A stretch of 64,000 nt of DNA, from positions 139,316,001 to 139,380,000 of the forward strand of contig NC_086097.1 in NCBI RefSeq assembly GCF_963921235.1. Reading direction: 5' to 3'. The position numbers and the translations under genes are program-made. The notes under the pieces are model-generated. The model was not told the DNA's origin and ran no database searches. It saw only the letters and a list, made by a program, of their open reading frames with translations. Source of the stretch: Mobula hypostoma (taxonomy: Eukaryota). Of this stretch, positions 6,262 through 64,000 are shown one piece after another. The first letter of the stretch is position 1, and the number at the start of each line of letters is the position of its first letter.

Positions 6262-6391
6262 GTGGGAACAAGTTCCACTCCTTTCCAACACAAAGCCACC
6301 ATCACCCTTCACGGCCACCTGCGTTCCAGGGAACTGCCCCTGTACGGATCCAAGACGCTGGCTGTTCGAGAGGGCACACTGGAGCTCCACG
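6262..6391 (+). CDS. PKHD1L1: Internal coding exon of fibrocystin-L; G8 domain C-terminal part
   Basis: Acceptor ccccttttttcctgggctag|GTG and donor CACG|gtaagc. Translates VGTSSTPFQHKATITLHGHLRSRELPLYGSKTLAVREGTLELH(G), the G8 motif G...PF...A.ITL.G...G.K.LAV..G.L.LHG. Confidence 0.93.
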
Positions 6392-7029: not shown

Positions 7030-7231
7030 GTAAGTCCATGGTGTTGTTGTACTTGGGTAGCTAAGGCTGGGCAGGACATGTGAAACCTCGTCAGGGTCAC
7101 CAAGGTCCAGAGCTGGACCTCAGCCCACCACTGGGACCTCATAGGCTGAAATGAGGGAATCTGTTGCACTGTAGGACGGGTGGTACGGAGGGAGCATCAA
7201 ACTCAGGGAGGACCAAAATTAAGAGAGCAGA

Positions 7232-10200
7232 ACACTATGGATGGACAGTACTGAGGGAGTGTCACACTGTGGGACGGACAGTACTGAGGGAGTGTCACAC
7301 TGTGGGTTTGACGGTATTGTGGGAGTGTCACGCTGTGGGATGGACAGTATTGAGGGAGTGTCACACTGTGAGATGGACGGTACTGAGGGAGTGTCACACT
7401 GTGGGACGGACAGTATTGAGGGAGTGTCACACTGTGAGATGGACGGTACTGAGGGAGTGTCACACTGTGGGATGGACAGTACTGAGGGAGTGTCACACTG
7501 TGGGATGGACAGTATTGAGGGAGTGTCACACTGTGAGATGGACGGTACTGAGGGAGTGTCACACTGTGGGATGGACGGTACTCAGGGAGTGTCACACTGC
7601 GGGATGGTCGGTATTGAGGGAGTGTCACACTGCGGGATGGTCGGTATTGAGGGAGTGTCACACTGCGGTATGGACGGTACTGAGGGAGTGTCACACTGTG
7701 GGATGGACGGTACTGAGGGAGTGTCACACTGTGGGATGGACAGTATTGAGGGAGTGTCACACTGTGGGATGGACGGTACTGAGGGAGTGTCACACTGTGG
7801 GATGGACGGTACTGAGGGAGTGTCACACTGCGGGATGGTCGGTATTGAGGGAGTGTCACACTGCGGTATGGAGAGTACTGAGGGAGTGTCACACTGCGGT
7901 ATGGAGAGTACTGAGGGAGTGTCACACTGCGGGATGGACGGTACTGAGGGAGTGTCACACTGCGGGATGGAGAGTACTGAGGGAGTGTCACACTGCGGGA
8001 TGGAGAGTACTGAGGGAGTGTCACACTGCGGGATGGACGGTACTGAGGGAGAGTCACACTGCGGGATGGAGAGTACTGAGGGAGTGTCACACTGCGGGAT
8101 GGACGGTACTGAGGGAGTGTCACACTGCGGGATGAACAGTACTGAGGGAGTGTCACACTGCGGGATGGACGATACTGAGTGAGTGTCACACTGCGTGATG
8201 GATGGTACTGAGGGAGTGTCACACTGCGGGATGGACGGTACTGATGGAGTGTCACACTGCGGGATGGTCGGTACTGAGGGAGTGTCACACTGCGGTATGG
8301 AGAGTACTGAGGGAGTGTCACACTGCGGGATGGACGGTACTGAGGGAGAGTCACACTGCGGGATGGACAGTACTGAGGGAGTGTCACACTGCGGGATGGA
8401 GAGTTCTGAGGGAGTGTCACACTGCGGGATGGACGGTACTGAGGGAGTGTCACACTGCGGGATGGACGGTACTGAGGGAGAGTCACACTGCGGGATGGAC
8501 GGTACTGAGGGAGTGTCACACTGTGGGATGGAGAGTACTGAGGGAGTGTCACACTGCGGGATGGACGGTACTGAGGGAGTGTCACACTGCGGGATGGACA
8601 GTACTGAGGGAGTGTCACACTGCGGGATGGACGGTACTGAGGGAGTGTCACACTGCGGGATGGACGGTACTGAGGGAGTGTCACACTGCGGGATGGACGG
8701 TACTGAGGGAGTGTCACAATGCGGGATGGACGGTACTGAGGGAGTGTCACACTGCGGGATGGACGGTACTGATGGAGTGTCACACTGCGGGATGGTCGGT
8801 ACTGAGGGAGTGTCACACTGCGGGATGGACAGTACTGATGGAGTGTCACACTGTGGGATAGACGGTACTGAGGGAGTGTCACACTGCGGGATGGTCGGTA
8901 CTGAGGGAGTGTCACACTGTGGGATGGAGAGTACAGAGGGAGTGTCACACTGCGGGATGGACAGTACTGAGGGAGTGTCAGACTGTGGGATGGTTGGTAC
9001 TGAGGGAGTGTCAGACTGTGGGATGGATGGTACTGAGGGAGTGTCAGACTGTGGGATGGTCGGTACTGAGAGATTGTCACACTATAGGATGGAGAGTACT
9101 CAGGGAGTGTCACACTGCGGGATGGACAGTACAGAGGGAGTGTCACACTGCGGGATGGACGGTACTGAGGGAGTGTCAGACTGTGGGATGGTCGGTACTG
9201 AGGGAGTGTCACACTGTGGGATGGACGGTACTGAGGGAGTGTCAGACTGCGGGATGGTCGGTACTGAGGGAGTGTCACCCTGCGGGATGGACGGTACTGA
9301 GGGAGTGTCACACTGCGGGATGGACGGTACTGAGTGAGTGTCACACTGTGGGATGGACGGTACTGATGGAGTGTCACACTGCGGTATGGAGAGTACTGAG
9401 GGAGTGTCACACTGCGGGATGGACGGTACTGAGGGAGAGTCACACTGCGGGATGGGACAGTACTGAGGGAGTGTCACACTGCGGGATGGAGAGTACTGAG
9501 GGAGTGTCACACTGCGGGATGGACGGTACTGAGGGAGTATCACACTGCGGGATGGACGGTACTGAGGGAGAGTCACACTGCGGGATGGACGGTACTGAGG
9601 GAGTGTCACACTGCGGGATGGAGAGTACTGAGGGAGTGTCACACTGCGGGATGGACGGTACTGAGGGAGTGTCACACTGCGGGATGGACGGTACTGAGGG
9701 AGTGTCACACTGCGGGATGGACGGTACTGAGTGAGTGTCACACTGCGGGATGGACGGTACTGAGGGAGTGTCACACTGCGGGATGGACGGTACTGAGGGA
9801 GTGTCACACTGCGGGATGGACGGTACTGAGGGAGTGTCACACTGCGGGATGGACGGGACTGATGGAGTGTCACACTGCGGGATGGTCGGTACTGAGGGAG
9901 TGTCACACTGTGGGATGGACGGTACTGATGGAGTGTCACACTGTGGGATAGACGGTACTGAGGGAGTGTCACACTGCGGGATGGTCGGTACTGAGGGAGT
10001 GTCACACTGTGGGATGGAGAGTACAGAGGGAGTGTCACACTGCGGGATGGACAGTACTGAGGGAGTGTCAGACTGTGGGATGGTTGGTACTGAGGGAGTG
10101 TCAGACAGTGGGATGGATGGTACTGAGGGAGTGTCAGACTGTGGGATGGTCGGTACTGAGAGATTGTCACACTATAGGATGGAGAGTACTCAGGGAGTGT

Positions 10201-13200
10201 CACACTGCGGGATGGACAGTACAGAGGGAGTGTCAGACTGCGGGATGGACGGTACTGAGGGAGTGTCAGACTGTGGGATGGTCGGTACTGAGGGAGTGTC
10301 ACACTGTGGGATGGACGGTACTGAGGGAGTGTCAGACTGCGGGATGGTCGGTACTGAGGGAGTGTCACACTGCGGGACGGACGGTACTGAGGGAGTGTCA
10401 CACTGCGGGACGGAGAGTACTGAGGGAGTGTCACACTGCGGGACGAAGAGTACGGACGGAGTGTCACACTGCGGGATGGACGGTACTGAGGAAGTGTCAC
10501 ACTGCGGGATGGAGAGTACTGAGGGAGTGTCACACTGCGGGATGGACGGTACTGAGGGAGTGTCACACTGCGGGATGAACAGTACTGAGGGAGTGTCACA
10601 CTGCGGGATGGACGATACTGAGTGAGTGTCACACTGCGTGATGGATGGTACTGAGGGAGTGTCACACTGCGGGATGGACGGTACTGAGGGAGTGTCAGAC
10701 TGCGGGATGGTCGGTACTGAGGGAGTGTCACACTGCGGTATGGAGAGTACTGAGGGAGTGTCACACTGCGGGATGGACGGTACTGAGGGAGAGTCACACT
10801 GCGGGATGGACAGTACTGAGGGAGTGTCACACTGCGGGATGGAGAGTTCTGAGGGAGTGTCACACTGCGGGATGGACGGTACTGAGGGAGTGTCACACTG
10901 CGGGATGGACGGTACTGAGGGAGAGTCACACTGCGGGATGGACGGTACTGAGGGAGTGTCACACTGTGGGATGGAGAGTACTGAGGGAGTGTCACACTGC
11001 GGGATGGACGGTACTGAGGGAGTGTCACACTGCGGGATGGACAGTACTGAGGGAGTGTCACACTGCGGGATGGACGGTACTGAGGGAGTGTCACACTGCG
11101 GGATGGACGGTACTGAGGGAGTGTCACACTGCGGGATGGACGGTACTGAGGGAGTGTCACAATGCGGGATGGACGGTACTGAGGGAGTGTCACACTGCGG
11201 GATGGACGGTACTGATGGAGTGTCACACTGCGGGATGGTCGGTACTGAGGGAGTGTCACACTGCGGGATGGACAGTACTGATGGAGTGTCACACTGTGGG
11301 ATAGACGGTACTGAGGGAGTGTCACACTGCGGGATGGTCGGTACTGAGGGAGTGTCACACTGTGGGATGGAGAGTACAGAGGGAGTGTCACACTGCGGGA
11401 TGGACAGTACTGAGGGAGTGTCAGACTGTGGGATGGTTGGTACTGAGGGAGTGTCAGACTGTGGGATGGATGGTACTGAGGGAGTGTCAGACTGTGGGAT
11501 GGTCGGTACTGAGAGATTGTCACACTATAGGATGGAGAGTACTCAGGGAGTGTCACACTGCGGGATGGACAGTACAGAGGGAGTGTCACACTGCGGGATG
11601 GACGGTACTGAGGGAGTGTCAGACTGTGGGATGGTCGGTACTGAGGGAGTGTCACACTGTGGGATGGACGGTACTGAGGGAGTGTCAGACTGCGGGATGG
11701 TCGGTACTGAGGGAGTGTCACCCTGCGGGATGGACGGTACTGAGGGAGTGTCACACTGCGGGATGGACGGTACTGAGTGAGTGTCACACTGTGGGATGGA
11801 CGGTACTGATGGAGTGTCACACTGCGGTATGGAGAGTACTGAGGGAGTGTCACACTGCGGGATGGACGGTACTGAGGGAGAGTCACACTGCGGGATGGGA
11901 CAGTACTGAGGGAGTGTCACACTGCGGGATGGAGAGTACTGAGGGAGTGTCACACTGCGGGATGGACGGTACTGAGGGAGTATCACACTGCGGGATGGAC
12001 GGTACTGAGGGAGAGTCACACTGCGGGATGGACGGTACTGAGGGAGTGTCACACTGCGGGATGGAGAGTACTGAGGGAGTGTCACACTGCGGGATGGACG
12101 GTACTGAGGGAGTGTCACACTGCGGGATGGACGGTACTGAGGGAGTGTCACACTGCGGGATGGACGGTACTGAGTGAGTGTCACACTGCGGGATGGACGG
12201 TACTGAGGGAGTGTCACACTGCGGGATGGACGGTACTGAGGGAGTGTCACACTGCGGGATGGACGGTACTGAGGGAGTGTCACACTGCGGGATGGACGGG
12301 ACTGATGGAGTGTCACACTGCGGGATGGTCGGTACTGAGGGAGTGTCACACTGTGGGATGGACGGTACTGATGGAGTGTCACACTGTGGGATAGACGGTA
12401 CTGAGGGAGTGTCACACTGCGGGATGGTCGGTACTGAGGGAGTGTCACACTGTGGGATGGAGAGTACAGAGGGAGTGTCACACTGCGGGATGGACAGTAC
12501 TGAGGGAGTGTCAGACTGTGGGATGGTTGGTACTGAGGGAGTGTCAGACAGTGGGATGGATGGTACTGAGGGAGTGTCAGACTGTGGGATGGTCGGTACT
12601 GAGAGATTGTCACACTATAGGATGGAGAGTACTCAGGGAGTGTCACACTGCGGGATGGACAGTACAGAGGGAGTGTCAGACTGCGGGATGGACGGTACTG
12701 AGGGAGTGTCAGACTGTGGGATGGTCGGTACTGAGGGAGTGTCACACTGTGGGATGGACGGTACTGAGGGAGTGTCAGACTGCGGGATGGTCGGTACTGA
12801 GGGAGTGTCACACTGCGGGACGGACGGTACTGAGGGAGTGTCACACTGCGGGACGGAGAGTACTGAGGGAGTGTCACACTGCGGGACGAAGAGTACGGAC
12901 GGAGTGTCACACTGCGGGATGGACGGTACTGAGGAAGTGTCACACTGCGGGATGGAGAGTACTGAGGGAGTGTCACACTGTGGGTTTGACGGTATTGTGG
13001 GAGTGTCACTCTGTGGGATGGACAGTATTGAGGGAGTGTCACACTGTGAGATGGACGGTACTGAGGGAGTGTCACACTGTGGGACGGACAGTATTGAGGG
13101 AGTGTCACACTGTGAGATGGACGGTACTGAGGGAGTGTCACACTGTGGGATGGACAGTACTGAGGGAGTGTCACACTGTGGGATGGACAGTATTGAGGGA

Positions 13201-16200
13201 GTGTCACACTGTGAGATGGACGGTACTGAGGGAGTGTCACACTGTGGGATGGACGGTACTCAGGGAGTGTCACACTGCGGGATGGTCGGTATTGAGGGAG
13301 TGTCACACTGCGGTATGGAGAGTACTGAGGGAGTGTCACACTGCGGGATGGACGGTACTGAGAGAGAGTCACACTGCGGGATGGACGGTACTGAGGGAGT
13401 GTCACACTGCGGGATGGAGAGTACTGAGGGAGTGTCACACTGCGGGATGGAGAGTACTGAGGGAGTGTCACACTGCGGGATGGACGGTACTGAGGGAGTG
13501 TCACACTGCGGGATGGACAGTACTGAGGGAGTGTCACACTGCGGGATGGACGATACTGAGTGAGTGTCACACTGCGGGATGGACGGTACTGAGGGAGAGT
13601 CACACTGCGGGATGGACGGTACTGAGGGAGTGTCACACTGTGGGACGGACAGTATTGAGGGAGTGTCACACTGTGAGATGGACGGTACTGAGGGAGTGTC
13701 ACACTGTGGGATGGACAGTACTGAGGGAGTGTCACACTGTGGGATGGACAGTATTGAGGGAGTGTCACGCTGTGAGATGGACGGTACTGAGGGAGTGTCA
13801 CACTGTGGGATGGACGGTACTGAGGGAGTGTCACACTGCGGGATGGTCGGTATTGAGGGAGTGTCACACTGCGGTCTGGAGAGTACTGAGGGAGTGTCAC
13901 ACTGCGGTATGGAGAGTACTGAGGGAGTGTCACACTGTGGGATGGACGGTACTGAGGGAGTGTCACACTGCGGGATGGAGAGTACTCAGGGAGTGTCACA
14001 CTGCGGGATGGACGGTACTGAGGGAGAGTCACACTGCAGGATGGAGAGTACTGAGGGAGTGTCACACTGCGGGATGGACGGTACTGAGGGAGTGTCACAC
14101 TGCGGGATGGACAGTACTGAGGGAGTGTCACACTGCGGGATGGACGATACTGAGTGAGTGTCACACTGCGTGATGGATGGTACTGAGGGAGTGTCACACT
14201 GCGGGATGGACGGTACTGAGGGAGTGTCACACTGCGGGATGGACGGTACTGAGGGAGTGTCACACTGCGGGATGGACGGTACTGAGGGAGTGTCACACTG
14301 TGGGATGGACGGTACTGATGGAGTGTCACACTGCGGGATGGTCGGTACTGAGGGAGTGTCACACTGCGGTATGGAGAGTACTGAGGGAGTGTCACACTGC
14401 GGGATGGACGGTACTGAGGGAGAATCACACTGCGGGATGGACAGTACTGAGGGAGTGTCACACTGCGGGATGGAGAGTACTGAGGGAGTGTCACACTGCG
14501 GGATGGACGGTACTGAGGGAGTGTCACACTGCGGGATGGACGGTACTGAGGGAGTGTCACACTGCGGGATGGACGGTACTGAGTGAGTGTCACACTGCGG
14601 GATGGACGGTACTGAGGGAGTGTCACACTGCGGGATGGACGGTACTGAGGGAGTGTCACACTGCGGGATGGACGGTACTGAGGGAGTGTCACACTGCGGG
14701 ATGGACGGTACTGAGGGAGTGTCACACTGCGGGATGGACGGTACTGATGGAGTGTCACACTGCGGGATGGTCGGTACTGAGGGAGTGTCACAATGTGGGA
14801 TGGACAGTACTGATGGAGTGTCACACTGTGGGATAGACGGTACTGAGGGAGTGTCACACTGCGGGATGGTCGGTACTGAGGGAGTGTCACACTGTGGGAT
14901 GGAGAGTACAGAGGGAGTGTCACACTGCGGGATGGACAGTACTGAGGGAGTGTCAGACTGTGGGATGGTTGGTACTGAGGGAGTGTCAGACTGTGGGATG
15001 GATGGTACTGAGGGAGTGTCAGACTGTGGGATGGTCGGTACTGAGAGATTGTCACACTATAGGATGGAGAGTACTCAGGGAGTGTCACACTGCGGGATGG
15101 ACAGTACAGAGGGAGTGTCACACTGCGGGATGGATGGTACTGAGGGAGTGTCAGACTGTGGGATGGTCGGTACTGAGGGAGTGTCACACTGTGGGATGGA
15201 CGGTACTGAGGGAGTGTAAGACTGCGGGATGGTCGGTACTCAGGGAGTGTCACACTGCGGGATGGACGGTACTGATGGATTGTCACACTGCGGGATGGAC
15301 GGTACTGAGTGAGTGTCACACTGCGGGATGGACGGTACTGATGGAGTGTCACACTGCGGTATGGAGAGTACTGAGGGAGTGTCACACTGCGGGATGGACG
15401 GTACTGAGGGAGAGTCACACTGCGGGATGGGACAGTACTGAGGGAGTGTCAAACCGCGGGATGGAGAGTACTGAGGGAGTGTCACACTGCGGGATGGACG
15501 GTACTGAGGGAGTATCACACTGCGGGATGGACGGGACTGAGGGAGAGTCACACTGCGGGATGGACGGTACTGAGGGAGTGTCACACTGTGGGATGGAGAG
15601 TACTGAGGGAGTGTCACACTGCGGGATGGACGGTACTGAGGGAGTGTCACACTGCGGGATGGACGGTACTCAGGGAGTGTCACACTGCGGGATGGACGGT
15701 ACTGAGGGAGTGTCACACTGCGGGATGGACGGTACTGATGGAGTGTCACACTGCGGGATGGTCGGTACTGAGGGAGTGTCACACTGTGGGATAGACGGTA
15801 CTGAGGGAGTGTCACACTGCGGGATGGTCGGTACTGAGAGATTGTCACACTATAGGATGGAGAGTACTCAGGGAGTGTCACACTGCGGGATGGACAGTAA
15901 AGAGGGAGTGTCACACTGTGGGATGGTCGGTACTGAGGGAGTGTCACACTGTGGGATGGACGGTACTGAGGGAGTGTCAGACTGCGGGATGGTCGGTACT
16001 GAGGGAGTGTCACACTGCGGGACGGACGGTACTGAGGGAGTGTCACACTGCGGGACGGAGGGTACTGAGGGAGTGTCACACTGCGGGACTGAGAGTACTG
16101 AGGTAGTGTCACACTGCGGGACGAAGAGTACGGACGGAGTGTCACACTGCGGGATGGACGGTACTGAGGGAGTGTCACACTGCGGGATGGACGGTACTGA

Positions 16201-19200
16201 GGGAGTGTCACACTGCGGGATGGAGAGTACTGAGTGAGTGTCACACTGCGTGATGGACGGTACTGAGGGAGTGTCACACTGCGGGATGGACAGTACTGAG
16301 GTAGTGTCACACTGCGGGATGGACGGTACTGAGGGAGTGTCACACTGCGGGATGGACGGTACTGAGGGAGTGTCACACTGCGGGATGGACGGTACTGAGG
16401 GAGAGTCACACTGCGGGATGGACAGTACTGAGGGAGTGTCACACTGCGGGATGGAGAGTACTGAGGGAGTGTCACACAGCGGGATGGACAGTACAGAGGG
16501 AGTGTCACACTGCGGGATGGACGGTACTGAGGGAGTGTCAGACTGCGGGATGGACAGTACTGAGGGAGTGTCACACTGCGGGATGGACGGTACTGAGTGA
16601 GTGTCACACTGCGGGATGGACGGTACTGAGGGAGTGTCACACTGCGGGATGGACGGTACTGAGGGAGTGTCACACTGCGGGATGGACGGTACTGAGGGAG
16701 TGTCACACTGCGGGATGGACGGTACTGATGGAGTGTCACACTGCGGGATGGTCGGTACTGAGGGAGTGTCACACTGTGGGATGGACAGTACTGATGGAGT
16801 GTCACACTGTTGGATAGACGGTACTGAGGGAGTGTCACACTGCGGGATGGTCGGTACTGAGGGAGTGTCACACTGTGGGATGGAGAGTACAGAGGGAGTG
16901 TCACACTGCGGGATGGACAGTACTGAGGGAGTGTCAGACTGTGGGATGGTTGGTACTGAGGGAGTGTCAGACTGTGGGATGGATGGTACTGAGGGAGTGT
17001 CAGACTGTGGGATGGTCGGTACTGAGAGATTGTCACACTATAGGATGGAGAGTACTGAGGGAGTGTCACACTGCGGGACGGAGAGTACGGACGGAGTGTC
17101 ACACTGCGGGATGGACGGTACTGAGGGAGTGTCACACTGCGGGATGGACGGTACTGAGTGAGTGTCACACTGCGGGATGGACGGTACTGAGGGAGTGTCA
17201 AACTGCGGGATGGACGGTACTGAGGGAGTGTCACACTGCGGGATGCATGGTACTGATGGAGTGTCACACTGCGGGATGGTCGGTACTGAGGGTGTGTCAC
17301 ACTGTGGGATGGACAGTACTGATGGAGTGTCACACTGTGGGATAGACGGTACTGAGGGAGTGTCACACTGCGGGATGGTCGGTACTGAGGGAGTGTCACA
17401 CTGTGGGATGGAGAGTACAGAGGGAGTGTCACACTGCGGGATGGACAGTACTGAGGGAGTGTCAGACTGTGGGATGGTTGGTACTGAGGGAGTGTCAGAC
17501 TGTGGGATGGATGGTACTGAGGGAGTGTCAGACTGTGGGATGGTCGGTACTGAGAGATTGTCACACTATAGGATGGAGAGTACTGAGGGAGTGTCACACT
17601 GCGGGACGGAGAGTACGGACGGAGTGTCACACTGCGGGACGGACGGTACTGAGGGAGTGTCACACTGCGGGACGGAGGGTACTGAGGGAGTGTCACACTG
17701 CGGGACGGAGAGTACTGAGGGAGTGTCACACTGCGGGACGAAGAGTACGGACGGAGTGTCACACTGCGGGATGGACGGTACTGAGGAAGTGTCACACTGC
17801 GGGATGGAGAGTACTGAGGGAGTGTCACACTGTGGGTTTGACGGTATTGTGGGAGTGTCACTCTGTGGGATGGACAGTATTGAGGGATTGTCACACTGTG
17901 AGATGGACGGTACTGAGGGAGTGTCACACTGTGGGACGGACAGTATTGAGGGAGTGTCACACTGTGAGATGGACGGTACTGAGGGAGTGTCACACTGTGG
18001 GATGGACAGTACTGAGGGAGTGTCACACTGTGGGATGGACAGTATTGAGGGAGTGTCACACTGTGAGATGGACGGTACTGAGGGAGTGTCACACTGTGGG
18101 ATGGACGGTTCTCAGGGAGTGTCACACTGCGGGATGGTCGGTATTGAGGGAGTGTCACACTGCGGTATGGAGAGTACTGAGGGAGTGTCACACTGCGGGA
18201 TGGACGGTACTGAGAGAGAGTCACACTGCGGGATGGACGGTACTGAGGGAGTGTCACACTGCGGGATGGACAGTACTGAGGGAGTGTCACACTGCGGGAT
18301 GGAGAGTACTGAGGGAGTGTCACACTGCGGGATGGACGGTACTGAGGGAGTGTCACACTGCGGGATGGACAGTACTGAGGGAGTGTCACACTGCGGGATG
18401 GACGATACTGAGTGAGTGTCACACTGCGGGATGGACGGTACTGAGGGAGAGTCACACTGCGGGATGGACGGTACTGAGGGAGTGTCACACTGTGGGACGG
18501 ACAGTATTGAGGGAGTGTCACACTGTGAGATGGACGGTACTGAGGGAGTGTCACACTGTGGGATGGACAGTACTGAGGGAGTGTCACACTGTGGGATGGA
18601 CAGTATTGAGGGAGTGTCACACTGTGAGATGGACGGTACTGAGGGAGTGTCACACTGGGGGATGGACGGTACTGAGGGAGTGTCACACTGCGGGATGGTC
18701 GGTATTGAGGGAGTGTCACACTGCGGTCTGGAGAGTACTGAGGGAGTGTCACACTGCGGTATGGAGAGTACTGAGGGAGTGTCACACTGCGGGATGGACG
18801 GTACTGAGGGAGTGTCACACTGCGGGATGGAGAGTACTGAGGGAGTGTCACACTGCGGGATGGACGGTACTGAGGGAGAGTCACACTGCGGGATGGAGAG
18901 TACTAAGGGAGTGTCACACTGCGGGATGGACGGTACTGAGGGAGTGTCACACTGCGGGATGGACAGTACTGAGGGAGTGTCACACTGCGGGATGGACGAT
19001 ACTGAGTGAGTGTCACACTGCGTGATGGATGGTACTGAGGGAGTGTCACACTGCGGGATGGACGGTACTGAGGGAGTGTCACACTGCGGGATGGACGGTA
19101 CTGAGGGAGTGTCACACTGCGGGATGGACGGTACTGAGGGAGTGTCACACTGCGGGATGGACGGTACTGATGGAGTGTCACACTGCGGGATAGTCGGTAC

Positions 19201-49200: not shown

Positions 49201-52200
49201 GTGGGATGGACAGTACTGAGGGAGTGTCACACTGTGGGATGGACAGTACTGAGGGAGTGTCACACTGTGGGATGGACAGTACTGAGGGAGTGTCACACTG
49301 TGGGATGGACGGTACTGAGGGAGTGTCACACTGTGGGATGGACGGTACTGAGGGAGTGTCACACTGTGGGATGGACGGTACTGAGGGAGTGTCACACTGT
49401 GGGATGGACGGTACTGAGGGAGTGTCACACTGTGGGATGGTCGGTACTGAGGGAGTGTCACACTGTGGGATGGACGGTACTGAGGGAATGTCACACTGTG
49501 GGATGGATAGTACTGAGGGAGTGTCACACAGTTGGATGGACAGTAATGAGGGAGTGTCACACTGTGGGATGGACAGTACAGACGGAGTGTCACACTGTGG
49601 GATGGAATACTGAGGGAGAGTCACACTGTTGGATGGACAGTACTGATGGAGTGTCACACTGTGGGATGGACGGTACTGAGGGAGTGTCACACTGTGGGAT
49701 GGACAGTACTGAGGGAGTGTCAGACTGTGGGATGGGTACTGAGGGAGTGTCACACTGTGGGATGGACAGTACTGAGGGAGTGTCACACTGTGGGATGGAC
49801 AGTACTGAGGGAGTGTCACACTGTGGGATGGACGGTACTGAGGGAGTGTCACACTGTGGGATGGACGGTACTGAGGGAGTGTCACACTGTGGGATGGAGA
49901 GTACTGAGGGAGTGTCACACTGCGGGATGGACGGTACTGAGGGAGTGTCACACTGTGGGATGGACAGTACTGAGGGAGTGTCACACTGTGGGATGGACGA
50001 TACTGAGTGAGTGTCACACTGCGGGATGGACGGTACTGAGGGAGTGTCACACTGCGGGATGGACGGTACTGAGGGAGTGTCACACTGCGGGATGGACGGT
50101 ACTGAGGGAGTGTCACACTGTGGGATGGACGGTACTGAGGGAGTGTCACACTGTGGGATGGACGGTACTGAGGGAGTGTCACACTGCGGGATGGAGAGTA
50201 CTGAGGGAGTGTCACACTGTGGGATGGACGGTACTGAGGGAGAGTCACACTGCGGGATGGACAGTACTGAGGGAGTGTCACACTGCGGGATGGAGAGTAC
50301 TGAGGGAGTGTCACACTGCGGGATGGACGGTACTGAGGGAGTGTCACACTGTGGGATGGACGGTACTGAGGGAGAGTCACACTGTGGGATGGACAGTACT
50401 GAGGGAGTGTCACACTGTGGGATGGAGGGTACTGAGGGAGTGTCACACTGCGGGATGGACGGTACTGAGGGAGTGTCACACTGTGGGATGGACGGTACTG
50501 AGTGAGTGTCACACTGCGGGATGGACGGTACTGAGGGAGTGTCACACTGTGGGATGGACGGTACTGAGGGAGTGTCACACTGCGGGATGGACGGTACTGA
50601 GGGAGTGTCACACTGTGGGATGGACGGTACTGAGGGAGTGTCACACTGTGGGATAGACGGTACTGAGGGAGTGTCACACTGTGGGATGGTCGGTACTGAG
50701 GGAGTGTCACACTGTGGGATAGACGGTACTGAGGGAGTGTCACACTGTGGGATGGTCGGTACTGAGGGAGTGTCACACTGTGGGATGGAGAGTACAGAGG
50801 GAGTGTCACACTGCGGGATGGACAGTACTGAGGGAGTGTCAGACTGTGGGATGGTTGGTACTGAGGGAGTGTCAGACTGTGGGATGGATGGTACTGAGGG
50901 AGTGTCAGACTGTGGGATGGTCGGTACTGAGAGATTGTCACACTATAGGATGGAGAGTACTCAGGGAGTGTCACACTGCGGGATGGACAGTACAGAGGGA
51001 GTGTCACACTGTGGGATGGACGGTACTGAGGGAGTGTCAGACTGTGGGATGGTCGGTACTGAGGGAGTGTCACACTGTGGGATGGACGGTACTGAGGGAG
51101 TGTCAGACTGCGGGATGGACGGTACTGAGGGAGTGTCACACTGTGGGATGGACGGTACTGAGGGAGTGTCACACTGTGGGATGGACGGTACTGAGGGAGT
51201 GTCACACTGCGGGATGGACGGTACTGAGGGAGTGTCACACTGCGGGATGGACAGTACTGAGGGAGTGTCACACTGCGGGATGGACGGTACTGAGGGAGTG
51301 TCACACTGTGGGATGGACAGTACTGAGGGAGTGTCACACTGCGGGATGGACAGTACTGAGGGAGTGTCACACTGCGGGATGGACGGTACTGAGGGAGTGT
51401 CACACTGCGGGATGGACGGTACTGAGGGAGTGTCACACTGTGGGATGGACAGTACTGAGGGAGTGTCACACTGTGGGATGGACAGTACTGAGGGAGTGTC
51501 ACACTGTGGGATGGACGGTACTGAGGGAGTGTCACACTGTGGGATGGACGGTACTGAGGGAGTGTCACACTGTGGGATGGACGGTACTGAGGGAGTGTCA
51601 CACTGTGGGATGGACGGTACTGAGGGAGTGTCACACTGCGGGATGGACGGTACTGAGGGAGTGTCACACTGCGGGATGGACGGTACTGAGGGAGTGTCAC
51701 ACTGTGGGATGGACGGTACTGAGGGAGTGTCACACTGTGGGATGGACAATACTGAGTGAGTGTCACACTGTGGGATGGACAGTACTGAGGGAGTGTCACA
51801 CTGCGGGATGGACAGTACTGAGGGAGTGTCACACTGTGGGATGGAGAGTACAGAGGGAGTGTCACACTGTGGGATGGACAGTACTGAGGGAGTGTCACAC
51901 TGTGGGATGGATGGTACTGAGGGAGTGTCAGACTGTGGGATGGAGGTACTGAGGGAGTGTCAGACTGTGGGATGGACGTACTGAGGATGTGACACTATAG
52001 GATGGACAGTACTGAGGGAGTGTCACACTGTGGGATGGACAGTACTGAGGGAGTGTCACACTGTGGGATGGACGGTACTGAGGGAGTGTCAGACTGTGGG
52101 ATGGACGGTACTGAGGGAGTGTCACACTGTGGGATGGACAGTACTGAGGGAGTGTCACACTGTGGGATGGACGGTACTGAGGGAGTGTCACACTGTGGGA

Positions 52201-55200
52201 TGGACAGTACTGAGGGAGTGTCACACTGTGGGATGGACAGTACTGAGGGAGTGTCACACTGTGGGATGGACGGTACTGAGGGAGTGTCACACTGTGGGAT
52301 GGACGGTACTGAGGGAGTGTCACACTGTGGGATGGACAGTACTGAGGGAGTGTCACACTGTGGGATGGACAGTACTGAGGGAGTGTCACACTGTGGGATG
52401 GACGGTACTGAGGGAGTGTCACACTGTGGGATGGACGGTACTGAGGGAGTGTCACACTGTGGGATGGACGGTACTGAGGGAGTGTCACACTGTGGGATGG
52501 ACGGTACTGAGGGAGTGTCACACTGTGGGATGGACGGTACTGAGGGAGTGTCACACTGTGGGATGGACAGTACTGAGGGAGTGTCACACTGTGGGATGGA
52601 CAGTACTGAGGGAGTGTCACACTGTGGGATGGACGGTACTGAGGGAGTGTCACACTGTGGGATGGACAGTACTGAGGGAGTGTCAGACTGTGGGATGGAC
52701 GGTACTGAGAGATTGTCACACTATAGGATGGAGAGTACTCAGGGAGTGTCACACTGCGGGATGGACAGTACAGAGGGAGTGTCACACTGCGGGATGGACG
52801 GTACTGAGGGAGTGTCACACTGTGGGATGGACGGTACTGAGGGAGTGTCAGACTGTGGGATGGACGGTACTGAGGGGGTGTCAGACTGTGGGATGGACGG
52901 TACTGAGGGAGTGTCACACTGTGGGATGGACGGTACTGAGGGAGTGTCACACTGTGGGATGGACGGTACTGAGTGAGTGTCACACTGTGGGATGGACGGT
53001 ACTGAGGGAGTGTCACACTGTGGGATGGACAGTACTGAGGGAGTGTCACACTGTGGGATGGACGGTACTGAGGGAGTGTCACACTGTGGGATGGACAGTA
53101 CTGAGGGAGTGTCACACTGTGGGATGGACAGTACTGAGGGAGTGTCAGACTGCGGGATGGACGGTACTGAGGGAGTGTCACACTGTGGGATGGACGGTAC
53201 TGAGGGAGTGTCACACTGTGGGATGGACAGTACTGAGGGAGTGTCACACTGTGGGATGGACAGTACTGAGGGAGTGTCACACTGTGGGATGGACGGTACT
53301 GAGGGAGTGTCACACTGTGGGATGGACAGTACTGAGGGAGTGTCACACTGTGGGATGGACGGTACTGAGGGAGTGTCACACTGTGGGATGGACGGTACTG
53401 AGGGAGTGTCACACTGTGGGATGGACGGTACTGAGGGAGTGTCACACTGTGGGATGGACGGTACTGAGGGAGTGTCACACTGTGGGATGGACGGTACTGA
53501 GGGAGTGTCACACTGTGGGATGGATGGTACGGAGGGAGTGTCACACTGTGGGATGGACAATACTGAGTGAGTGTCACACTGTGGGATGGACAGTACTGAG
53601 GGAGTGTCACACTGTGGGATGGACGGTACTGAGGGAGTGTCACACTGTGGGATGGACAGTACTGAGGGAGTGTCACACTGTGGGATGGACAGTACTGAGG
53701 GAGTGTCACACTGTGGGATGGTTGGTACTGAGGGAGTGTCAGACTGTGGGATGGATGGTACTGAGGGAGTGTCAGACTGTGGGATGGACGGTACTGAGTG
53801 ATTGTCACACTAAAGGATGGAGAGTACTGAGGGAGTGTCACACTGCGGGATGGACAGTACTGAGGGAGTGTCACACTGTGGGATGGACGGTACTGAGGGA
53901 GTGTCAGACTGTGGGATGGACGGTACTGAGGGAGTGTCACACTGTGGGATGGACAGTACTGAGGGAGTGTCACACTGTGGGATGGACGGTACTGAGGGAG
54001 TGTCACACTGTGGGATGGACAGTACTGATGGAGTGTCACACTGTGGGATGGACAGTACTGAGGGGGTGTCACACTGTGGGATGGACGGTACTGAGGGAGT
54101 GTCACACTGTGGGATGGACGGTACTGAGGGAGTGTCACACTGTGGGATGGACAGTACTGAGGGAGTGTCACACTGTGGGATGGACAGTACTGAGCGAGTG
54201 TCACACTGTGGGATGGACGGTACTGAGGGAGTGTCACACTGTGGGATGGACGGTACTGAGGGAGTGTCACACTGTGGGATGGACGGTACTGAGGGAGTGT
54301 CACACTGTGGGATGGACGGTACTGAGGGAGTGTCATACTGTGGGATGGACGGTACTGAGGGAGTGTCACACTGTGGGATGGACGGTACTGAGGGAGTGTC
54401 ACACTGTGGGATGGACAGTACTGAGGGAGTGTCACACTGTGGGATGGACGGTACTGAGGGAGTGTCACACTGTGGGATGGACAGTACTGAGGGAGTGTCA
54501 CACTGTGGGATGGAGAGTACTGAGGGAGTGTCACACTGTGGGATGGACAGTACTGAGGGAGTGTCAGACTGTGGGATGGTTGGTACTGAGGGAGTGTCAG
54601 ACTGTGGGATGGAAGGTACTGAGGGAGTGTCAGACTGTGGGATGGTCAGTACTGAGGGAGTGTCACACTGTGGGATGGACAGTACTGAGGGAGTGTCACA
54701 CTGTGGGATGGACAGTACTGAGGGAGTGTCACACTGTGGGATGGACGGTACTGAGGGAGTGTCAGACTGTGGGATGGACGGTACTGAGGGAGTGTCAGAC
54801 TGTGGGATGGACGGTACTGAGGGAGTGTCAGACTGTGGGATGGACGGTACTGAGGGAGTGTCACACTGTGGGATGGACGGTACTGAGGGAGTGTCACACT
54901 GTGGGATGGACGGTACTGAGGGAGTGTCACACTGTGGGATGGACGTTACTGAGGGAGTGTCACACTGTGGGATGGAGAGTACTGAGTGAGTGTCACACTG
55001 CGGGATGGACGGTACTGAGGGAGTGTCACACTGCGGGATGGACAGTACTGAGGGAGTGTCACACTGTGGGATGGACGGTACTGAGGGAGTGTCACACTGT
55101 GGGATGGACAGTACTGAGGGAGTGTCACACTGTGGGATGGACAGTACTGAGGGAGTGTCACACTGTGGGATGGACGGTACTGAGGGAGTGTCACACTGTG

Positions 55201-58200
55201 GGATGGACGGTACTGAGGGAGTGTCACACTGTGGGATGGACAGTACTGAGGATGTGTCACACTGTGGGATGGAGAGTACTGAGGGAGTGTCACACTGTGG
55301 GATGGACAGTACTAAGCGAGTGTCACACTGTGGGATGGACGGTACTGAGGGAGTGTCACACTGTGGGATGGACGGTACTGAGGGAGTGTCACACTGTGGG
55401 ATGGACAGTACTGAGGGAGTGTCACACTGTGGGATGGACAGTACTGAGGGAGTGTCACACTGTGGGATGGACGGTACTGAGGGGGTGTCACACTGTGGGA
55501 TGGACGGTACTGAGGGAGTGTCACACTGTGGGATGGATGGTACGGAGGGAGTGTCACACTGTGGGATGGACAATACTGAGTGAGTGTCACACTGTGGGAT
55601 GGACGGTACTGAGGGAGTGTCACACTGTGGGATGGACAGTACTGAGGGAGTGTCACACTGTGGGATGGACAGTACTGAGGGAGTGTCACACTGTGGGATG
55701 GACAGTACTGAGGGAGTGTCACACTGTGGGATGGATGGTACTGAGGGAGTGTCAGACTGTGGGATGGATGGTACTGAGCGAGTGTTAGACTGTGGGATGG
55801 TCTGTACTGAGAGATTGTGACACTATAGGATGGAGAGTACTCAGGGAGTGTCACACTGCGGGATGGACAGTACTGAGGGAGTGTCACACTGTGGGATGGA
55901 CGGTACTGAGGGAGTGTCAGACTGTGGGATGGACGGTACTGAGGGAGTGTCACACTGTGGGATGGACAGTACTGAGGGAGTGTCACACTGTGGGATGGAC
56001 GGTACTGAGGGAGTGTCACACTGTGGGATGGACAGTACTGAGGGAGTGTCACACTGTGGGATGGACAGTACTGAGGGAGTGTCACACTGTGGGATGGACG
56101 GTACTGAGGGAGTGTCACACTGTGGGATGGACGGTACTGAGGGAGTGTCACACTGTGGGATGGACAGTACTGAGGGAGTGTCACACTGTGGGATGGACAG
56201 TACTGAGGGAGTGTCACACTGTGGGATGGACGGTACTGAGGGAGTGTCACACTGTGGGATGGACGGTACTGAGGGAGTGTCACACTGTGGGATGGACGGT
56301 ACTGAGGGAGTGTCACACTGTGGGATGGACGGTACTGAGGGAGTGTCACACTGTGGGATGGACGGTACTGAGGGAGTGTCACACTGTGGGATGGACAATA
56401 CTGAGGGAGTGTCACACTGTGGGATGGACAGTACTGAGGGAGTGTCACACTGTGGGATGGACAGTACTGAGGGAGTGTCACACTGTGGGATGGACAGTAC
56501 TGAGGGAGTGTCAGACTGTGGGATGGACGGTACTGAGAGAGTGTCACACTGTGGGATGGACAGTACTGAGGGAGTGTCACACTGTGGGATGGACAGTACT
56601 GAGGGAGTGTCACACTGTGGGATGGACGGTACTGAGGGAGTGTCAGACTGTGGGATGGACGGTACTGAGGGAGTGTCAGACTGTGGGATGGACGGTACTG
56701 AGGGAGTGTCAGACTGTGGGATGGACGGTACTGAGGGAGTGTCACACTGTGGGATGGACGGTACTGAGGGGGTGTCACACTGTGGGATGGACGGTACTGA
56801 GGGAGTGTCACACTGTGGGATGGACGGTACTGAAGGAGTGTCACACTGTGGGATGGACAGTACTGAGGGAGTGTCACACTGTGGGATGGACGGTACTGAG
56901 GGAGTGTCACACTGTGGGATGGACAGTACTGAGGGAGTGTCACACTGTGGGATGGACAGTACTGAGGGAGTGTCACACTGTGGGATGGACGGTACTGAGG
57001 GAGTGTCACACTGTGGGATGGACAGTACTGAGGGAGTGTCACACTGTGGGATGGACAGTACTGAGGGAGTGTCACACTGTGGGATGGACGTTACTGAGGG
57101 AGTGTCACACTGTGGGATGGACGGTACTGAGGGAGTGTCACACTGTGGGATGGACGGTACTGAGGGAGTGTCACACTGTGGGATGGACGGTACTGAGGGA
57201 GTGTCACACTGTGGGATGGACGGTACTGAGGGAGTGTCACACTGTGGGATGGACGGTACTGAGGGAGTGTCACACTGTGGGATGGACGGTACTGAGGGAG
57301 TGTCACACTGTGGGATGGACAGTACTGAGGGAGTGTCACACTGTGGGATGGACGGTACTGAGGGAGTGTCACACTGTGGGATGGACAGTACTGAGGGAGT
57401 GTCACACTGTGGGATGGACAGTACTGAGGGAGTGTCACACTGTGGGATGGACAGTACTGAGGGAGTGTCACACTGTGGGATGGACAGTACTGAGGGAGTG
57501 TCAGACTGTGGGATGGGCGGTACTGAGGGAGTGTCAGACTGTGGGATAGACGGTACTGAGGGATGGTCACACTGTGGGATGGAGAGTACTGAGGGAGTGT
57601 CACACTGTGGGATGGACAGTACTGAGGGAGTGTCACACTGTGGGATGGACGGTACTGAGGGAGTGTCAGACTGTGGGATGGACGGTACTGAGGGAGTGTC
57701 ACACTGTGGGATGGACAGTACTGAGGGAGTGTCACACTGTGGGATGGACGGTACTGAGGGAGTGTCACACTGTGGGATGGACAGTACTGAGGGAGTGTCA
57801 CACTGTGGGATGGACAGTACTAAGCGAGAGTCACACTGTGGGATGGACGGTACTGAGGGAGTGTCACACTGTGGGATGGACGGTACTGAGGGAGTGTCAC
57901 ACTGTGGGATGGACAGTACTGAGGGAGTGTCACACTGTGGGATGGACAGTACTGAGGGAGTGTCACACTGTGGGATGGACGGTACTGAGGGAGTGTCACA
58001 CTGTGGGATGGACGGTACTGAGGGAGTGTCACACTGTGGGATGGACGGTACTGAGGGAGTGTCACACTGTGGGATGGACGGTACTGAGGGAGTGTCACAC
58101 TGTGGGATGGACGGTACTGAGGGAGTGTCACACTGTGGGATGGACAGTACTGAGGGAGTGTCACACTGTGGGATGGACAGTACTGAGGGAGTGTCACACT

Positions 58201-61200
58201 GTGGGATGGACAGTACTGAGGGAGTGTCACACTGTGGGATGGACAGTACTGAGGGAGTGTCACACTGTGGGATGGACAGTACTGAGGGAGTGTCAGACTG
58301 TGGGATGGACGGTACTGAGCGAGTGTCAGACTGTGGGATGGACAGTACTGCGGGAGTATCAGACTGTGGGATGGACGATACTGAAAGTGTGTCACACTGT
58401 GGGATGGACAGTACTGAGGGAGTGTCACACTGTGGGATGGACAGTACTGAGGGAGTGTCACACTGTGGGATGGACGGTATTGAGGGAGTGTCAGACTGTG
58501 GGATGGACAGTATTGAGGGAGTGTCAGACTGTGGGATGGACGGTACTGAGGGGGTGTCAGACTGTGGGATGGACGGTACTGAGGGAGTGTCACACTGTGG
58601 GATGGACGGTACTGAGGGGGTGTCACACTGTGGGATGGACGGTACTGAGGGAGTGTCACACTGCGGGATGGACGTTACTGATGGAGTGTCACACTGCGGT
58701 ATGGAGAGTACTGAGTGAGTGTCATACTGCGGGATGGACGGTACTGAGGGAGTGTCACACTGTGGGATGGACAGTACTGAGGGAGTGTCACACTGTGGGA
58801 TGGACGGTACTGAGGGAGTGTCACACTGTGGGATGGACAGTACTGAGGGAGTGTCACACTGTGGGATGGACAGTACTGAGGGAGTGTCACACTGTGGGAT
58901 GGACGGTACTGAGGGAGTGTCACACTGTGGGATGGACGGTACTGAGGGAGTGTCACACTGTGGGATGGACAGTACTGAGGGAGTGTCACACTGTGGGATG
59001 GACAGTACTGAGGGAGTGTCACACTGTGGGATGGACGGTACTGAGTGAGTGTCACACTGTGGGATGGACACTACTGAGGGAGTGTCACACTGTGGGATGG
59101 ACGGTACTGAGGGAGTGTCACACTGTGGGATGGACGGTACTGAGGGAGTGTCACACTGTGGGATGGACGGTACTGAGGGAGTGTCACACTGTGGGATGGA
59201 CGGTATTGAGGGAGTGTCAGACTGTGGGATGGACGGTACTGAGGGAGTGTCACACTGTGGGATGGACGGTACTGAGGGAGTGTCACACTGTGGGATGGAC
59301 GGTACTGAAGGAGTGTCACACTGTGGGATGGACAGTACTGAGGGAGTGTCACACTGTGGGATGGACGGTACTGAGGGAGTGTCACACTGTGGGATGGACA
59401 GTACTGAGGGAGTGTCACACTGTGGGATGGACAGTACTGAGGGAGTGTCACACTGTGGGATGGACAGTACTGAGGGGGTGTCACACTGTGGGATGGACAG
59501 TACTGAGGGAGTGTCAGACTGTGGGATGGACAGTACTGAGGGAGTGTCACACTGTGGGATGGACAGTACTGAGTATGTGTCACACTGTGGGATGGAGAGT
59601 ACTGAGGGAGTGTCACACTGTGGGATGGACAGTACTAAGCGAGTGTCACACTGTGGGATGTACGGTACTGAGGGAGTGTCACATTGTGGGATGGACAGTA
59701 CTGAGGGAGTGTCACACTGTGGGATGGACAGTACTGAGGGAGTGTCACACTGTGGGATGGACGGTACTGAGGGAGTGTCACACTGTGGGATGGACGGTAC
59801 TGAGGGAGTGTCACACTGTGGGATGGACGGTACTGAGGGAGTGTCACACTGTGGGATGGACGGTACTGAGGGAGTGTCACACTGTGGGATGGACGGTACT
59901 GAGGGGGTGTCACACTGTGGGATGGACGGTACTGAGGGAGTGTCACACTGTGGGATGGACGGTACTGAGGGAGTGTCACACTGTGGGATGGACAGTACTG
60001 AGGGAGTGTCACACTGTGGGATGGACGGTACTGAGGGAGTGTCACACTGTGGGATGGACAGTACTGAGGGAGTGTCACACTGTGGGATGGACAGTACTGA
60101 GGGAGTGTCACACTGTGGGATGGACAGTACTGAGGGAGTGTCAGACTGTGGGATGGACAGTACTGAGGGAGTGTCAGACTGTGGGATGGATGGTACTGAG
60201 GGAGTGTCAGACTGTGGGATGGACGGTACTGAGGGAGTGTCACACTGTGGGATGGACAGTACTGAGGGAGTGTCACACTGTGGGATGGACAGTACTGAGG
60301 GAGTGTCACACTGTGGGATGGACGGTACTGAGGGAGTGTCAGACTGTGGGATGGACGGTACTGAGGGAGTGTCACACTGTGGGATGGACGGTACTGAGGG
60401 AGTGTCAGACTGTGGGATGGACAGTACTGAGGGAGTGTCACACTGTGGGATGGACGGTACTGAGGGAGTGTCACACTGTGGGATGGACAGTACTGAGGGA
60501 GTGTCACACTGTGGGATGGACAGTACTGAGGGAGTGTCACACTGTGGGATGGACAGTACTGAGGGAGTGTCACACTGTGGGATGGACAGTACTGAGGGAG
60601 TGTCACACTGTGGGATGGACAGTACTGAGGGAGTGTCACACTGTGGGATGGACAGTACTGAGGGAGTGTCACACTGTGGGATGGACAGTACTGAGGGAGT
60701 GTCACACTGTGGGATGGACAGTACTGAGGGAGTGTCACACTGTGGAATGGACAGTACTGAGGGAGTGTCACACTGTGGGATGGACGGTACTGAGGGAGTG
60801 TCACACTGTGGGATGGACGGTACTGAGGGAGTGTCACACTGTGGGATGGACGGTACTGAGGGAGTGTCACACTGTGGGATGGACGGTACTGAGGGAGTGT
60901 CACACTGTGGGATGGACGGTACTGAGGGAGTGTCACACTGTGGGATGGACAGTACTGAGGGAGTGTCACACTGTGGGATGGACAGTACTGAGGGAGTGTC
61001 ACACTGTGGGATGGACAGTACTGAGGGAGTGTCACACTGTGGGATGGACGGTACTGAGGGAGTGTCACACTGTGGGATGGACAGTACTGAGGGAGTGTCA
61101 CACTGTGGGATGGACAGTACTGAGGGAGTGTCACACTGTGGGATGGACAGTACTGAGGGAGTGTCACACTGTGGGATGGACAGTACTGAGGGAGTGTCAG

Positions 61201-64000
61201 ACTGTGGGATGGACAGTACTGAGGGAGTGTCAGACTGTGGGATGGACAGTACTGAGGGAGTGTCACACTGTGGGATGGACAGTACTGAGGGAGTGTCACA
61301 CTGTGGGATGGACAGTACTGAGGGAGTGTCACACTGTGGGATGGACGGTACTGAGGGAGTGTCAGACTGTGGGATGGACGGTACTGAGGGAGTGTCACAC
61401 TGTGGGATGGACAGTACTGAGGGAGTGTCACACTGTGGGATGGACGGTACTGAGGGAGTGTCACACTGTGGGATGGACAGTACTGAGGGAGTGTCACACT
61501 GTGGGATGGACAGTACTGAGGGAGTGTCACACTGTGGGATGGACAGTACTGAGGGAGTGTCACACTGTGGGATGGACAGTACTGAGGGAGTGTCACACTG
61601 TGGGATGGACAGTACTGAGGGAGTGTCACACTGTGGGATGGACAGTACTGAGGGAGTGTCACACTGTGGGATGGACGGTACTGAGGGAGTGTCACACTGT
61701 GGGATGGACGGTACTGAGGGAGTGTCACACTGTGGGATGGACGGTACTGAGGGAGTGTCACACTGTGGGATGGACGGTACTGAGGGAGTGTCACACTGTG
61801 GGATGGACGGTACTGAGGGAGTGTCACACTGTGGGATGGACAGTACTGAGGGAGTGTCACACTGTGGGATGGACAGTACTGAGGGAGTGTCACACTGTGG
61901 GATGGACAGTACTGAGGGAGTGTCACACTGTGGGATGGACGGTACTGAGGGAGTGTCACACTGTGGGATGGTCGGTACTGAGAGATTGTCACACTATAGG
62001 ATGGAGAGTACTCAGGGAGTGTCACACTGTGGGATGGACAGTACTGAGGGAGTGTCACACTGTGGGATGGACGGTACTGAGGGAGTGTCACACTGTGGGA
62101 TGGACAGTACTGAGGGAGTGTCACACTGTGGGATGGACGGTACTGAGGGAGTGTCAGACTGTGGGATGGACAGTACTGAGGGAGTGCAACACTGTGGGAT
62201 GGACGGTACTGAGAGAGTGTCACACTGTGGGATGGATGGTACGGAAGGAGTGTCACACTGTGGGATGGACGGTACTGAGGGAGTGTCACACTGTGGGATG
62301 GACAGTACTGAGGGAGTGTCACACTGTGGGATGGACAGTACTGAGGGAGTGTCACACTGTGGGATGGACAGTACTGAGGGAGTGTCACACTGTGGGATGG
62401 ACAGTACTGAGGGAGTGTCACACTGTGGGATGGACAGTACTGAGGGAGTGTCACACTGTGGGATGGACGGTACTGAGGGAGTGTCACACTGTGGGATGGA
62501 CAGTACTGAGGGAGTGTCACACTGTGGGATGGACAGTACTGAGGGAGTGTCACACTGTGGGATGGACAGTACTGAGGGAGTGTCAGACTGTGGGATGGAC
62601 GTTACTGAGGGAGTGTCACACTGTGGGATGGACGGTACTGAGGGGGTGTCACACTGTGGGATGGACGGTACTGAGGGAGTGTCACACTGTGGGATGGACG
62701 GTACTGAGGGAGTGTCACACTGTGGGATGGACGGTACTGAGGGAGTGTCACACTGTGGGATGGACGGTACTGAGGGAGTGTCACACTGTGGGATGGACAG
62801 TACTGAGGGAGTGTCACACTGTGGGATGGACAGTACTGAGGGAGTGTCACACTGTGGGATGGACAGTACTGAGGGAGTGTCACACTGTGGGATGGACAGT
62901 ACTGAGGGAGTGTCACACTGTGGGATGGACAGTACTGAGGGAGTGTCACACTGTGGGATGGACAGTACTGAGGGAGTGTCACACTGTGGGATGGACAGTA
63001 CTGAGGGAGTGTCAGACTGTGGGATGGACAGTACTGAGGGAGTGTCACACTGTGGGATGGACAGTACTGAGGGAGTGTCACACTGTGGGATGGACAGTAC
63101 TGAGGGAGTGTCACACTGTGGGATGGACAGTACTGAGGGAGTGTCACACTGTGGGATGGACGGTACTGAGGGAGTGTCAGACTGTGGGATGGACAGTACT
63201 GAGGGAGTGTCACACTGTGGGATGGACAGTACTGAGGGAGTGTCACACTGTGGGATGGACGGTACTGAGGGAGTGTCACACTGTGGGATGGACGGTACTG
63301 AGGGAGTGTCACACTGTGGGATGGACAGTACTGAGGGAGTGTCACACTGTGGGATGGACAGTACTGAGGGAGTGTCACACTGTGGGATGGACAGTACTGA
63401 GGGAGTGTCACACTGTGGGATGGACGGTACTGAGGGAGTGTCACACTGTGGGATGGACAGTACTGAGGGAGTGTCACACTGTGGGATGGACAGTACTGAG
63501 GGAGTGTCACACTGTGGGATGGACAGTACTGAGGGAGTGTCACACTGTGGGATGGACAGTACTGAGGGAGTGTCACACTGTGGGATGGACAGTACTGAGG
63601 GAGTGTCACACTGTGGGATGGACAGTACTGAGGGAGTGTCACACTGTGGGATGGACAGTACTGAGGGAGTGTCACACTGTGGGATGGACAGTACTGAGGG
63701 AGTGTCACACTGTGGGATGGACAGTACTGAGGGAGTGTCACACTGTGGGATGGACAGTACTGAGGGAGTGTCACACTGTGGGATGGACAGTACTGAGGGA
63801 GTGTCACACTGTGGGATGGACAGTACTGAGGGAGTGTCACACTGTGGGATGGACAGTACTGAGGGAGTGTCACACTGTGGGATGGACGGTACTGAGGGAG
63901 TGTCACACTGTGGGATGGACAGTACTGAGGGAGTGTCACACTGTGGGATGGACAGTACTGATGGAGTGTCACACTGTGGGATGGACAGTACTGAGGGAGT
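7232..64000. repeat. Giant 33-bp tandem satellite array (about 1,720 head-to-tail monomers, running off the window end), presumed intronic
   Basis: Consensus GTACTGAGGGAGTGTCACACTG(C/T)GGGATGGAC(G/A) repeats without spacers or inversions from about 7232 to 64000. The ORF track shows 11-aa periodicity ([11 protein letters not shown] / [11 protein letters not shown] / [11 protein letters not shown] / [11 protein letters not shown]). Confidence 0.99.

Follow-up and report, generated by a model that had tools for sequence, protein, structure and literature searches.

An 86-kb intron made almost entirely of a 33-bp minisatellite in PKHD1L1 of Mobula hypostoma, a likely young pseudogene

Introduction

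Can a vertebrate gene with otherwise short introns be spliced across tens of kilobases of pure tandem repeat, or does such an intron belong to a gene that no longer works? The question is raised by a stretch of 64,000 nucleotides from Mobula hypostoma (contig NC_086097.1, here C1, positions 139,316,001-139,380,000; hereafter the window), in which six exons of PKHD1L1, the gene for fibrocystin-L, are followed by a 33-bp minisatellite that runs to the window's end. A sequence-only reading of the window had taken the gene to be apparently intact and had reasoned that the block has to be transcribed and spliced out, much as in the Y-linked fertility genes of Drosophila, unless the array breaks the gene. 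We find that one intron of a single PKHD1L1 consists almost wholly of an array from a dispersed 33-bp family, and we favor, with some reservation, the view that this gene is a young pseudogene and that nothing, in all probability, held back the growth of the array in it.

Results

An intron that is almost all array

The source assembly comprises 3.48 Gb in 200 contigs, and 200 kb were fetched on either side of the window; the resulting 464 kb, which contain the array, hold no N bases. Positions are given in extended coordinates (position on C1 minus 139,316,000), which number the window from 1. Tandem Repeats Finder (TRF) calls a single 33-bp array in the window (7239-64000; 1,720.7 copies, 92% matches), and the full array continues to extended 92,918, for a length of 85,687 bp (2,595 copies, 93% matches). 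An array of at least 57 kb forming essentially a whole intron, behind a strong donor and about 200 bp of unique sequence, had been proposed from the window, and the extended sequence bears this out: the phase-2 donor AG/GTAAGT at 7029/7030 opens an intron of 86,093 bp (7030-93,122), of which the array is 99.5%, with 202 bp of unique sequence at its 5' end and 204 bp at its 3' end. The next phase-2 exon, to be looked for downstream, begins in phase at extended 93,123 and resumes gar PKHD1L1 at residue 2325, with no exon skipped. The 75 modeled introns have a median length of 1,205 bp, and the second largest measures 8,968 bp; the array intron is 71 times this median and takes up 38% of the 228-kb modeled span. 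The five introns before it, estimated earlier at 0.5-1.9 kb, measure 1,874, 932, 1,281, 1,267, and 508 bp.

The array is also as free of other sequence as the window had suggested. A tblastn search with gar PKHD1L1 gives no match in 7030-93121, where the flanking query residues are contiguous, and no transposon-sized insertion occurs in the array, the largest register jump being 57 bp; an exon or transposon concealed in it was rejected on this evidence. Its head-to-tail units come in 278 distinct forms with regional variant gradients, and higher-order blocks of 2,443 and 4,852/4,984 bp lie at about 8.3-31 kb. A multi-kilobase array of variant 33-bp units between two in-phase exons corresponds to a giant intronic minisatellite of the kind represented by TRACT, a tandem repeat of variable copy number with a 30-bp unit, 3-30+ kb long, in an intron of CACNA1C in humans (PMC13131567; see also 10.1101/311795). 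Read on the sense strand of PKHD1L1, the array is G-rich (G skew +0.44), with 1,040 long-loop and 0 strict G-quadruplex (G4) motifs, and contains neither AATAAA nor ATTAAA nor any acceptor-like site. The unit itself contains two short palindromes and is open in several frames; stop-free runs reach 2,716 codons in the whole intron and could be mis-annotated as genes. We rejected these long open frames as genes, as they are an expected consequence of a 33-bp unit.

Within the array, 99.3% of 2-kb words are unique, and long accurate reads could therefore tile it. The window's 57 kb of array are clean, with 15 off-register spacings in 1,566 (0.26 per kb), compared with 34 in 494 (2.0 per kb, an eightfold rate) at extended 67.8-84.5 kb, where at many off-register sites the two alleles of a variable position seem to have been written one after the other. 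These roughly 17 kb look like a consensus of mis-stacked reads, and the figure of 86 kb is therefore approximate.

A gene complete in outline and frameshifted in the assembly

The whole-gene model, obtained by spliced alignment with a profile that was built from 10 PKHD1L1 proteins of ray-finned fish, has 76 exons and 12,375 nt and extends from gar residue 27 to about 4,210 of a protein of about 4,230 residues; this alignment did not locate the first coding exon. Similarity is collinear along the protein and includes IPT/TIG, G8, and beta-helix domains, as expected of a PKHD1L1 orthologue, and the largest exon gives one strong match in the genome, indicating a single copy. Exons of ENY2, identified by means of two fused teleost models from which the ENY2 portion was taken as query, lie about 30 kb upstream on the same strand. 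The collinear exons, the domains, the upstream ENY2, and a terminal transmembrane exon are shared with gar, zebrafish, and frog fibrocystin-L (P0151, P0157, P0161), from which the present gene differs in its three assembly frameshifts and in a model without the first coding exon. All exons 3' of the array are in order up to the transmembrane-coding exon, with the last modeled exon entering the transmembrane segment. The suggestion that the array breaks the gene is thus structurally wrong, and a truncation was rejected on the in-phase exon at 93,123 and the order of the exons beyond it. Two paralogues joined across the array were likewise rejected, there being one copy with collinear, contiguous residues.

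The six window exons splice together without a stop and in compatible phases, as had been claimed, but the inference of an intact gene fails at the scale of the whole model, which has three frameshifts, the first of them upstream of the array, and no nonsense codons. Near extended -15,203, frameshift 1 leaves its exon 11 nt short relative to gar and leads to a stop at -15,158, which falls at about residue 1,270 of about 4,230, 22 kb upstream of the array. Under the 50-nt rule, a premature stop sufficiently far before a donor makes a transcript a target of nonsense-mediated decay; here the stop lies 96 nt before the donor, and any mRNA would therefore be such a target. A cryptic acceptor 40 nt into this exon, which would bypass the frameshift, was judged weak (GAG, purine-rich tract), and the micro-exons of a low-intron-penalty alignment, one of which masked frameshift 1, were dismissed as artefacts. 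Frameshift 2, near extended 133,270, is a loss of 5 nt within a motif that 10 of 10 ray-finned references carry intact, as do 15 of 18 further homologues (among the remaining three, two keep only G-L-G and one is without the motif). Frameshift 3, near extended 152,026, leaves the sequence 2 nt short relative to gar and precedes the transmembrane exon. None of the three is a single-base homopolymer slip: all are multi-base, in unique sequence, and in exons spread over 167 kb. The uninterrupted reading frame of a functional PKHD1L1 is absent from the assembly.

As a control for consensus errors we used G-protein-coupled receptor (GPCR) genes, for which 143 of 147 scored matches are stop-free; those scored are the best 147 of 1,944 candidates, a choice biased toward intact genes. 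The four matches with internal stops (C9:179,707,111; C18:110,466,845; C68:7,843,208; C78:18,211,998) are candidate pseudogenes or may contain introns. Two related organisms, B (about 2.4% diverged) and C, were represented by one sample each, with depth below 5 for B. In the listed rows, exonic changes common to B and C relative to the assembly, which represent changes private to the lineage of M. hypostoma, are 4 non-synonymous and 2 synonymous, and those private to C are 3 non-synonymous and 8 synonymous (133 and 28 further rows lie outside the count, and one split codon was classed by hand). Four sequencing runs that we guessed to be RNA do not cover the examined exons, which says nothing on expression either way.

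Several further features of the gene deserve mention. Three modeled introns have GC donors (extended -11,499, -1,536, and 146,553), of which two (GCATGT, GCACCT) are weak and may be misplaced or further lesions. GC content at third codon positions is the highest of the gene in two of the three exons right after the array (0.80 and 0.84; extended 93,123-95,238), and a 1,024-bp exon there is unusually diverged, being 59% identical to gar, compared with 82% for frog and 77% for zebrafish. This peak and divergence beside the array possibly reflect GC-biased conversion at a recombination hot spot. Other introns of PKHD1L1 hold unrelated minisatellites with 66-, 39-, and 29-bp units, 0.5-1.4 kb long. 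Homologue, representative, and cluster searches gave no full-length shark or ray orthologue, only one 191-residue catshark piece; otherwise they yielded ray-finned fish, frog, lancelet, and fragments.

Table 1. Features of the PKHD1L1 locus; positions within the window are written with two dots, and those beyond it are extended coordinates
Feature	Position	Strand	Basis
PKHD1L1 exon with frameshift 1, 15 kb upstream of the window	extended -15,223 to -15,060		
PKHD1L1 exon (IPT/TIG), gar residues 2049-2107	345..519	+	gene model, domain match
PKHD1L1 exon (IPT/TIG)	2394..2544	+	gene model, domain match
PKHD1L1 exon (start of G8 domain)	3477..3633	+	gene model, domain match
PKHD1L1 exon	4915..4994	+	gene model
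PKHD1L1 exon (G8 domain)	6262..6391	+	gene model, domain match
PKHD1L1 exon preceding the giant intron, gar residues 2282-2325, phase-2 donor GTAAGT	6900..7029	+	
Unique sequence of 202 bp at the 5' end of the giant intron; in organism B likewise, leading into repeat	7030..7231	+	
33-bp minisatellite array, window part	7232..64000	+	TRF; continues to extended 92,918
First exon past the array, phase 2	extended 93,123-93,361	+	gene model
Small array of the same 33-bp unit in another intron of PKHD1L1	extended 123,142-124,176		TRF
PKHD1L1 exon with frameshift 2	extended 133,124-133,351		
PKHD1L1 exon with frameshift 3	extended 151,951-152,102		
Unrelated minisatellites in PKHD1L1	extended -3,312 to -1,924; -32,308 to -31,524; 109,670 to 110,128		

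An old repeat with a probably young interior

In organism B, a contig that starts at 6659 runs into the repeat and ends there, and at the 3' junction contigs of both B and C start within the repeat; none of these contigs gives an array length. To judge from them, the 33-mer is already present at the same intron in two related organisms, and the repeat predates the species. All 134 genomic copies of an 83-mer variant lie inside this array, which has therefore been homogenized in place. Its blocks of 4.85-5.0 kb differ by 0.35-0.8%, the longest exact duplicate is 2,282 bp, and a private +1 variant recurs in six block copies that have since diverged. Private 21-mers have a density of about 0.5-1.4 per kb over the initial 36 kb and of 0.65-2.9 per kb further on, and reach 9.2 per kb at the 3' edge, the most diverged part of the array; much of the array is younger than 0.15%. 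We infer that the seed is old and that unequal exchange, by duplicating blocks, produced an interior that is young.

A dispersed repeat family

A 14-mer of the unit has 12,349 copies in the genome, compared with 16 for a control, and 2,012 of them (16%) are inside this array. A variant 29-mer marks arrays of about 0.4-8 kb on C9, C12, C22, and C24 among the first 100 of its 1,020 matches. The family is dispersed, with arrays on five contigs or more, and PKHD1L1 itself carries a further 1-kb array (Table 1). At a distance of 1.4 Mb, on the minus strand, there is a second large array of the 33-mer, which spans at least 54.7 kb (C1:137,932,207-137,986,888; 84% matches); it stops at a gap of 200 N and directly adjoins an 11.9-kb array of a 32-mer that is unrelated to it (to 137,998,955). 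In this genome the PKHD1L1 array probably ranks with the largest of the family, yet it is not unique in kind.

When C1 was sampled between 100 and 180 Mb, tandem repeat made up less than 4% of 17 of the 20 10-kb stretches, the others having 14% (139.0 Mb), 23% (139.8 Mb), and 8% (180 Mb). A centromeric or pericentromeric satellite block was rejected, since this is a local repeat-rich patch with no megabase-scale domain. The stretch at 139.0 Mb holds a 1.4-kb array of a 40-mer resembling the 33-mer family, and that at 139.8 Mb a 2.2-kb array of a 23-mer. Only 11 scattered matches to the 14-mer occur in C1:1-136 Mb, the tandem repeats being clustered in a mid-chromosome patch that is possibly a fusion scar or a former chromosome end.

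Discussion

In regard to how the intron reached its present state, the history that we favor would begin with an old minisatellite seed in an intron of PKHD1L1. This seed would have grown in place by unequal exchange or slippage copying kilobase blocks, in a gene already lost or on its way to being lost. The array should pose no trouble for the splicing of any transcript because its sense strand offers no poly(A) signal or acceptor-like site; this strand would probably be splice-silent and prone to R-loops. The mRNA would end at the premature stop upstream of the array and then be degraded, and the array itself would be a tolerated passenger without function. A gene dead for about 0.3-0.4% of divergence would show no stop with a probability of 0.2-0.3.

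Several observations weigh against the gene being dead, or against this order of events. The frameshifts are read from the assembly sequence, indels without nonsense codons also look like consensus error, and the GPCR control is skewed toward intact genes. Nearly every splice site is canonical, and in other respects the gene is complete. The contrast between shared and private substitutions (4:2 versus 3:8), counted in the listed rows, is not significant (one-sided p = 0.14). The array also contains 84 donor-like GTGAGT words. Finally, array turnover (0.05-0.8%) and gene loss (about 0.3-0.4%, a rough value) overlap in age, so that growth may have come before or after the loss.

This overlap gives room to a different order, in which the G-rich array grew to tens of kilobases in a working gene and lowered its expression through R-loops, heterochromatin, or stalled polymerase, with the frameshifts following later. 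The repeat is older than the species, its sense strand is G-skewed and rich in long-loop G4-like motifs, and some higher-order blocks (0.8%) look as old as the rough age of gene loss or older; moreover, human fibroblasts and testis show reduced expression of the gene when TRACT alleles are long (PMC13131567). However, any such effect on expression here is conjectural, strict G4 motifs are lacking, and much of the array is very young; we consider this order improbable. It is similarly doubtful that the 86-kb expansion was the first hit, silencing a hair-cell gene before the frameshifts arose.

Alternatively, the gene may work, the frameshifts being assembly errors or confined to one haplotype, in which case polymerase II transcribes and splices an 86-kb intron of pure repeat. 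The in-phase junction, the canonical splice sites, and the lack of nonsense codons are what such a gene would show; consensus noise is present inside the array, and mouse, zebrafish, and human all need PKHD1L1 to hear normally (PMC10593026, PMC11527881, PMC6707252). Nevertheless, errors of this sort would have to account for three multi-base deletions in unique sequence, scattered over distant exons, in an assembly whose GPCR control is mostly clean. We therefore regard a working gene as unlikely, and the earlier conclusion that one must be spliced across the block as unsupported. An array much shorter in the animal and over-expanded or mis-stacked in the assembly is very unlikely, for although the off-register excess with its side-by-side alleles, the gap that ends the neighboring 54.7-kb array, and the finding in zebra finch that minisatellite density tracks HiFi coverage dropout (10.1101/2025.10.14.682431) all speak for it, the array is gapless and clean throughout the window, its many distinct units form regional gradients, its exact duplicates are short, its 2-kb words are nearly all unique, and the copies sharing the +1 variant have since diverged.

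The intron differs from those with which it had been compared. In the Drosophila Y fertility genes kl-3 and kl-5, satellite fills gigantic introns (PMC6508621), and gigantism of this type involves hundreds of kilobases to megabases, more than 1,000 times a typical intron (PMC11207136). The likeness is weak, and holds insofar as one intron is nearly all tandem repeat and far exceeds its neighbors. It fails in size (86 kb, 71 times the median, rather than megabases), in the repeat, which is a dispersed minisatellite, and in the host: kl-3 and kl-5 are described as essential, expressed genes with a dedicated expression program, whereas PKHD1L1 here is broken in the assembly. TRACT, as reported, is closer, being likewise a vertebrate minisatellite inside an intron, built of variant units of about 30 bp, that grew over multiple kilobases from a short seed; it differs in lying in an already large intron of a working gene, compared with 99.5% of an intron, a dispersed family, and a frameshifted host here. 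By analogy, the array is best read as working like TRACT, unlike the Drosophila Y mega-introns, and is probably an ordinary intronic repeat of very large size.

Such repeats are at home in elasmobranchs: stingray and shark genomes are reported to have many tandem-repeat-rich regions and long repeat-filled introns (10.1101/2025.06.08.657570, PMC10620051), although the main-text passages of these papers describe neither this 33-mer nor a one-intron array of such size. The main text of a mobulid preprint (10.64898/2026.10.27.761883) mentions no PKHD1L1 or minisatellite. Our literature search found no description of this 33-mer, which the repeat libraries of the elasmobranch preprints may already contain, and no PKHD1L1 loss in cartilaginous fish.

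Our findings bear on how large intronic minisatellites become and on how their host genes are judged. Should the gene work after all, which we think less likely, it would present, in a vertebrate, a compact gene from whose transcript 86 kb of pure repeat are spliced out; should the expansion have preceded the frameshifts, also a less likely reading, the locus would be an instance in nature of a gene lost through expansion of a repeat. A window that looks intact can sit in a pseudogene, and the six clean exons here serve as a warning in this regard. At about three times the top of the TRACT range, and in a gene that is likely dead, the array shows how far such repeats grow.

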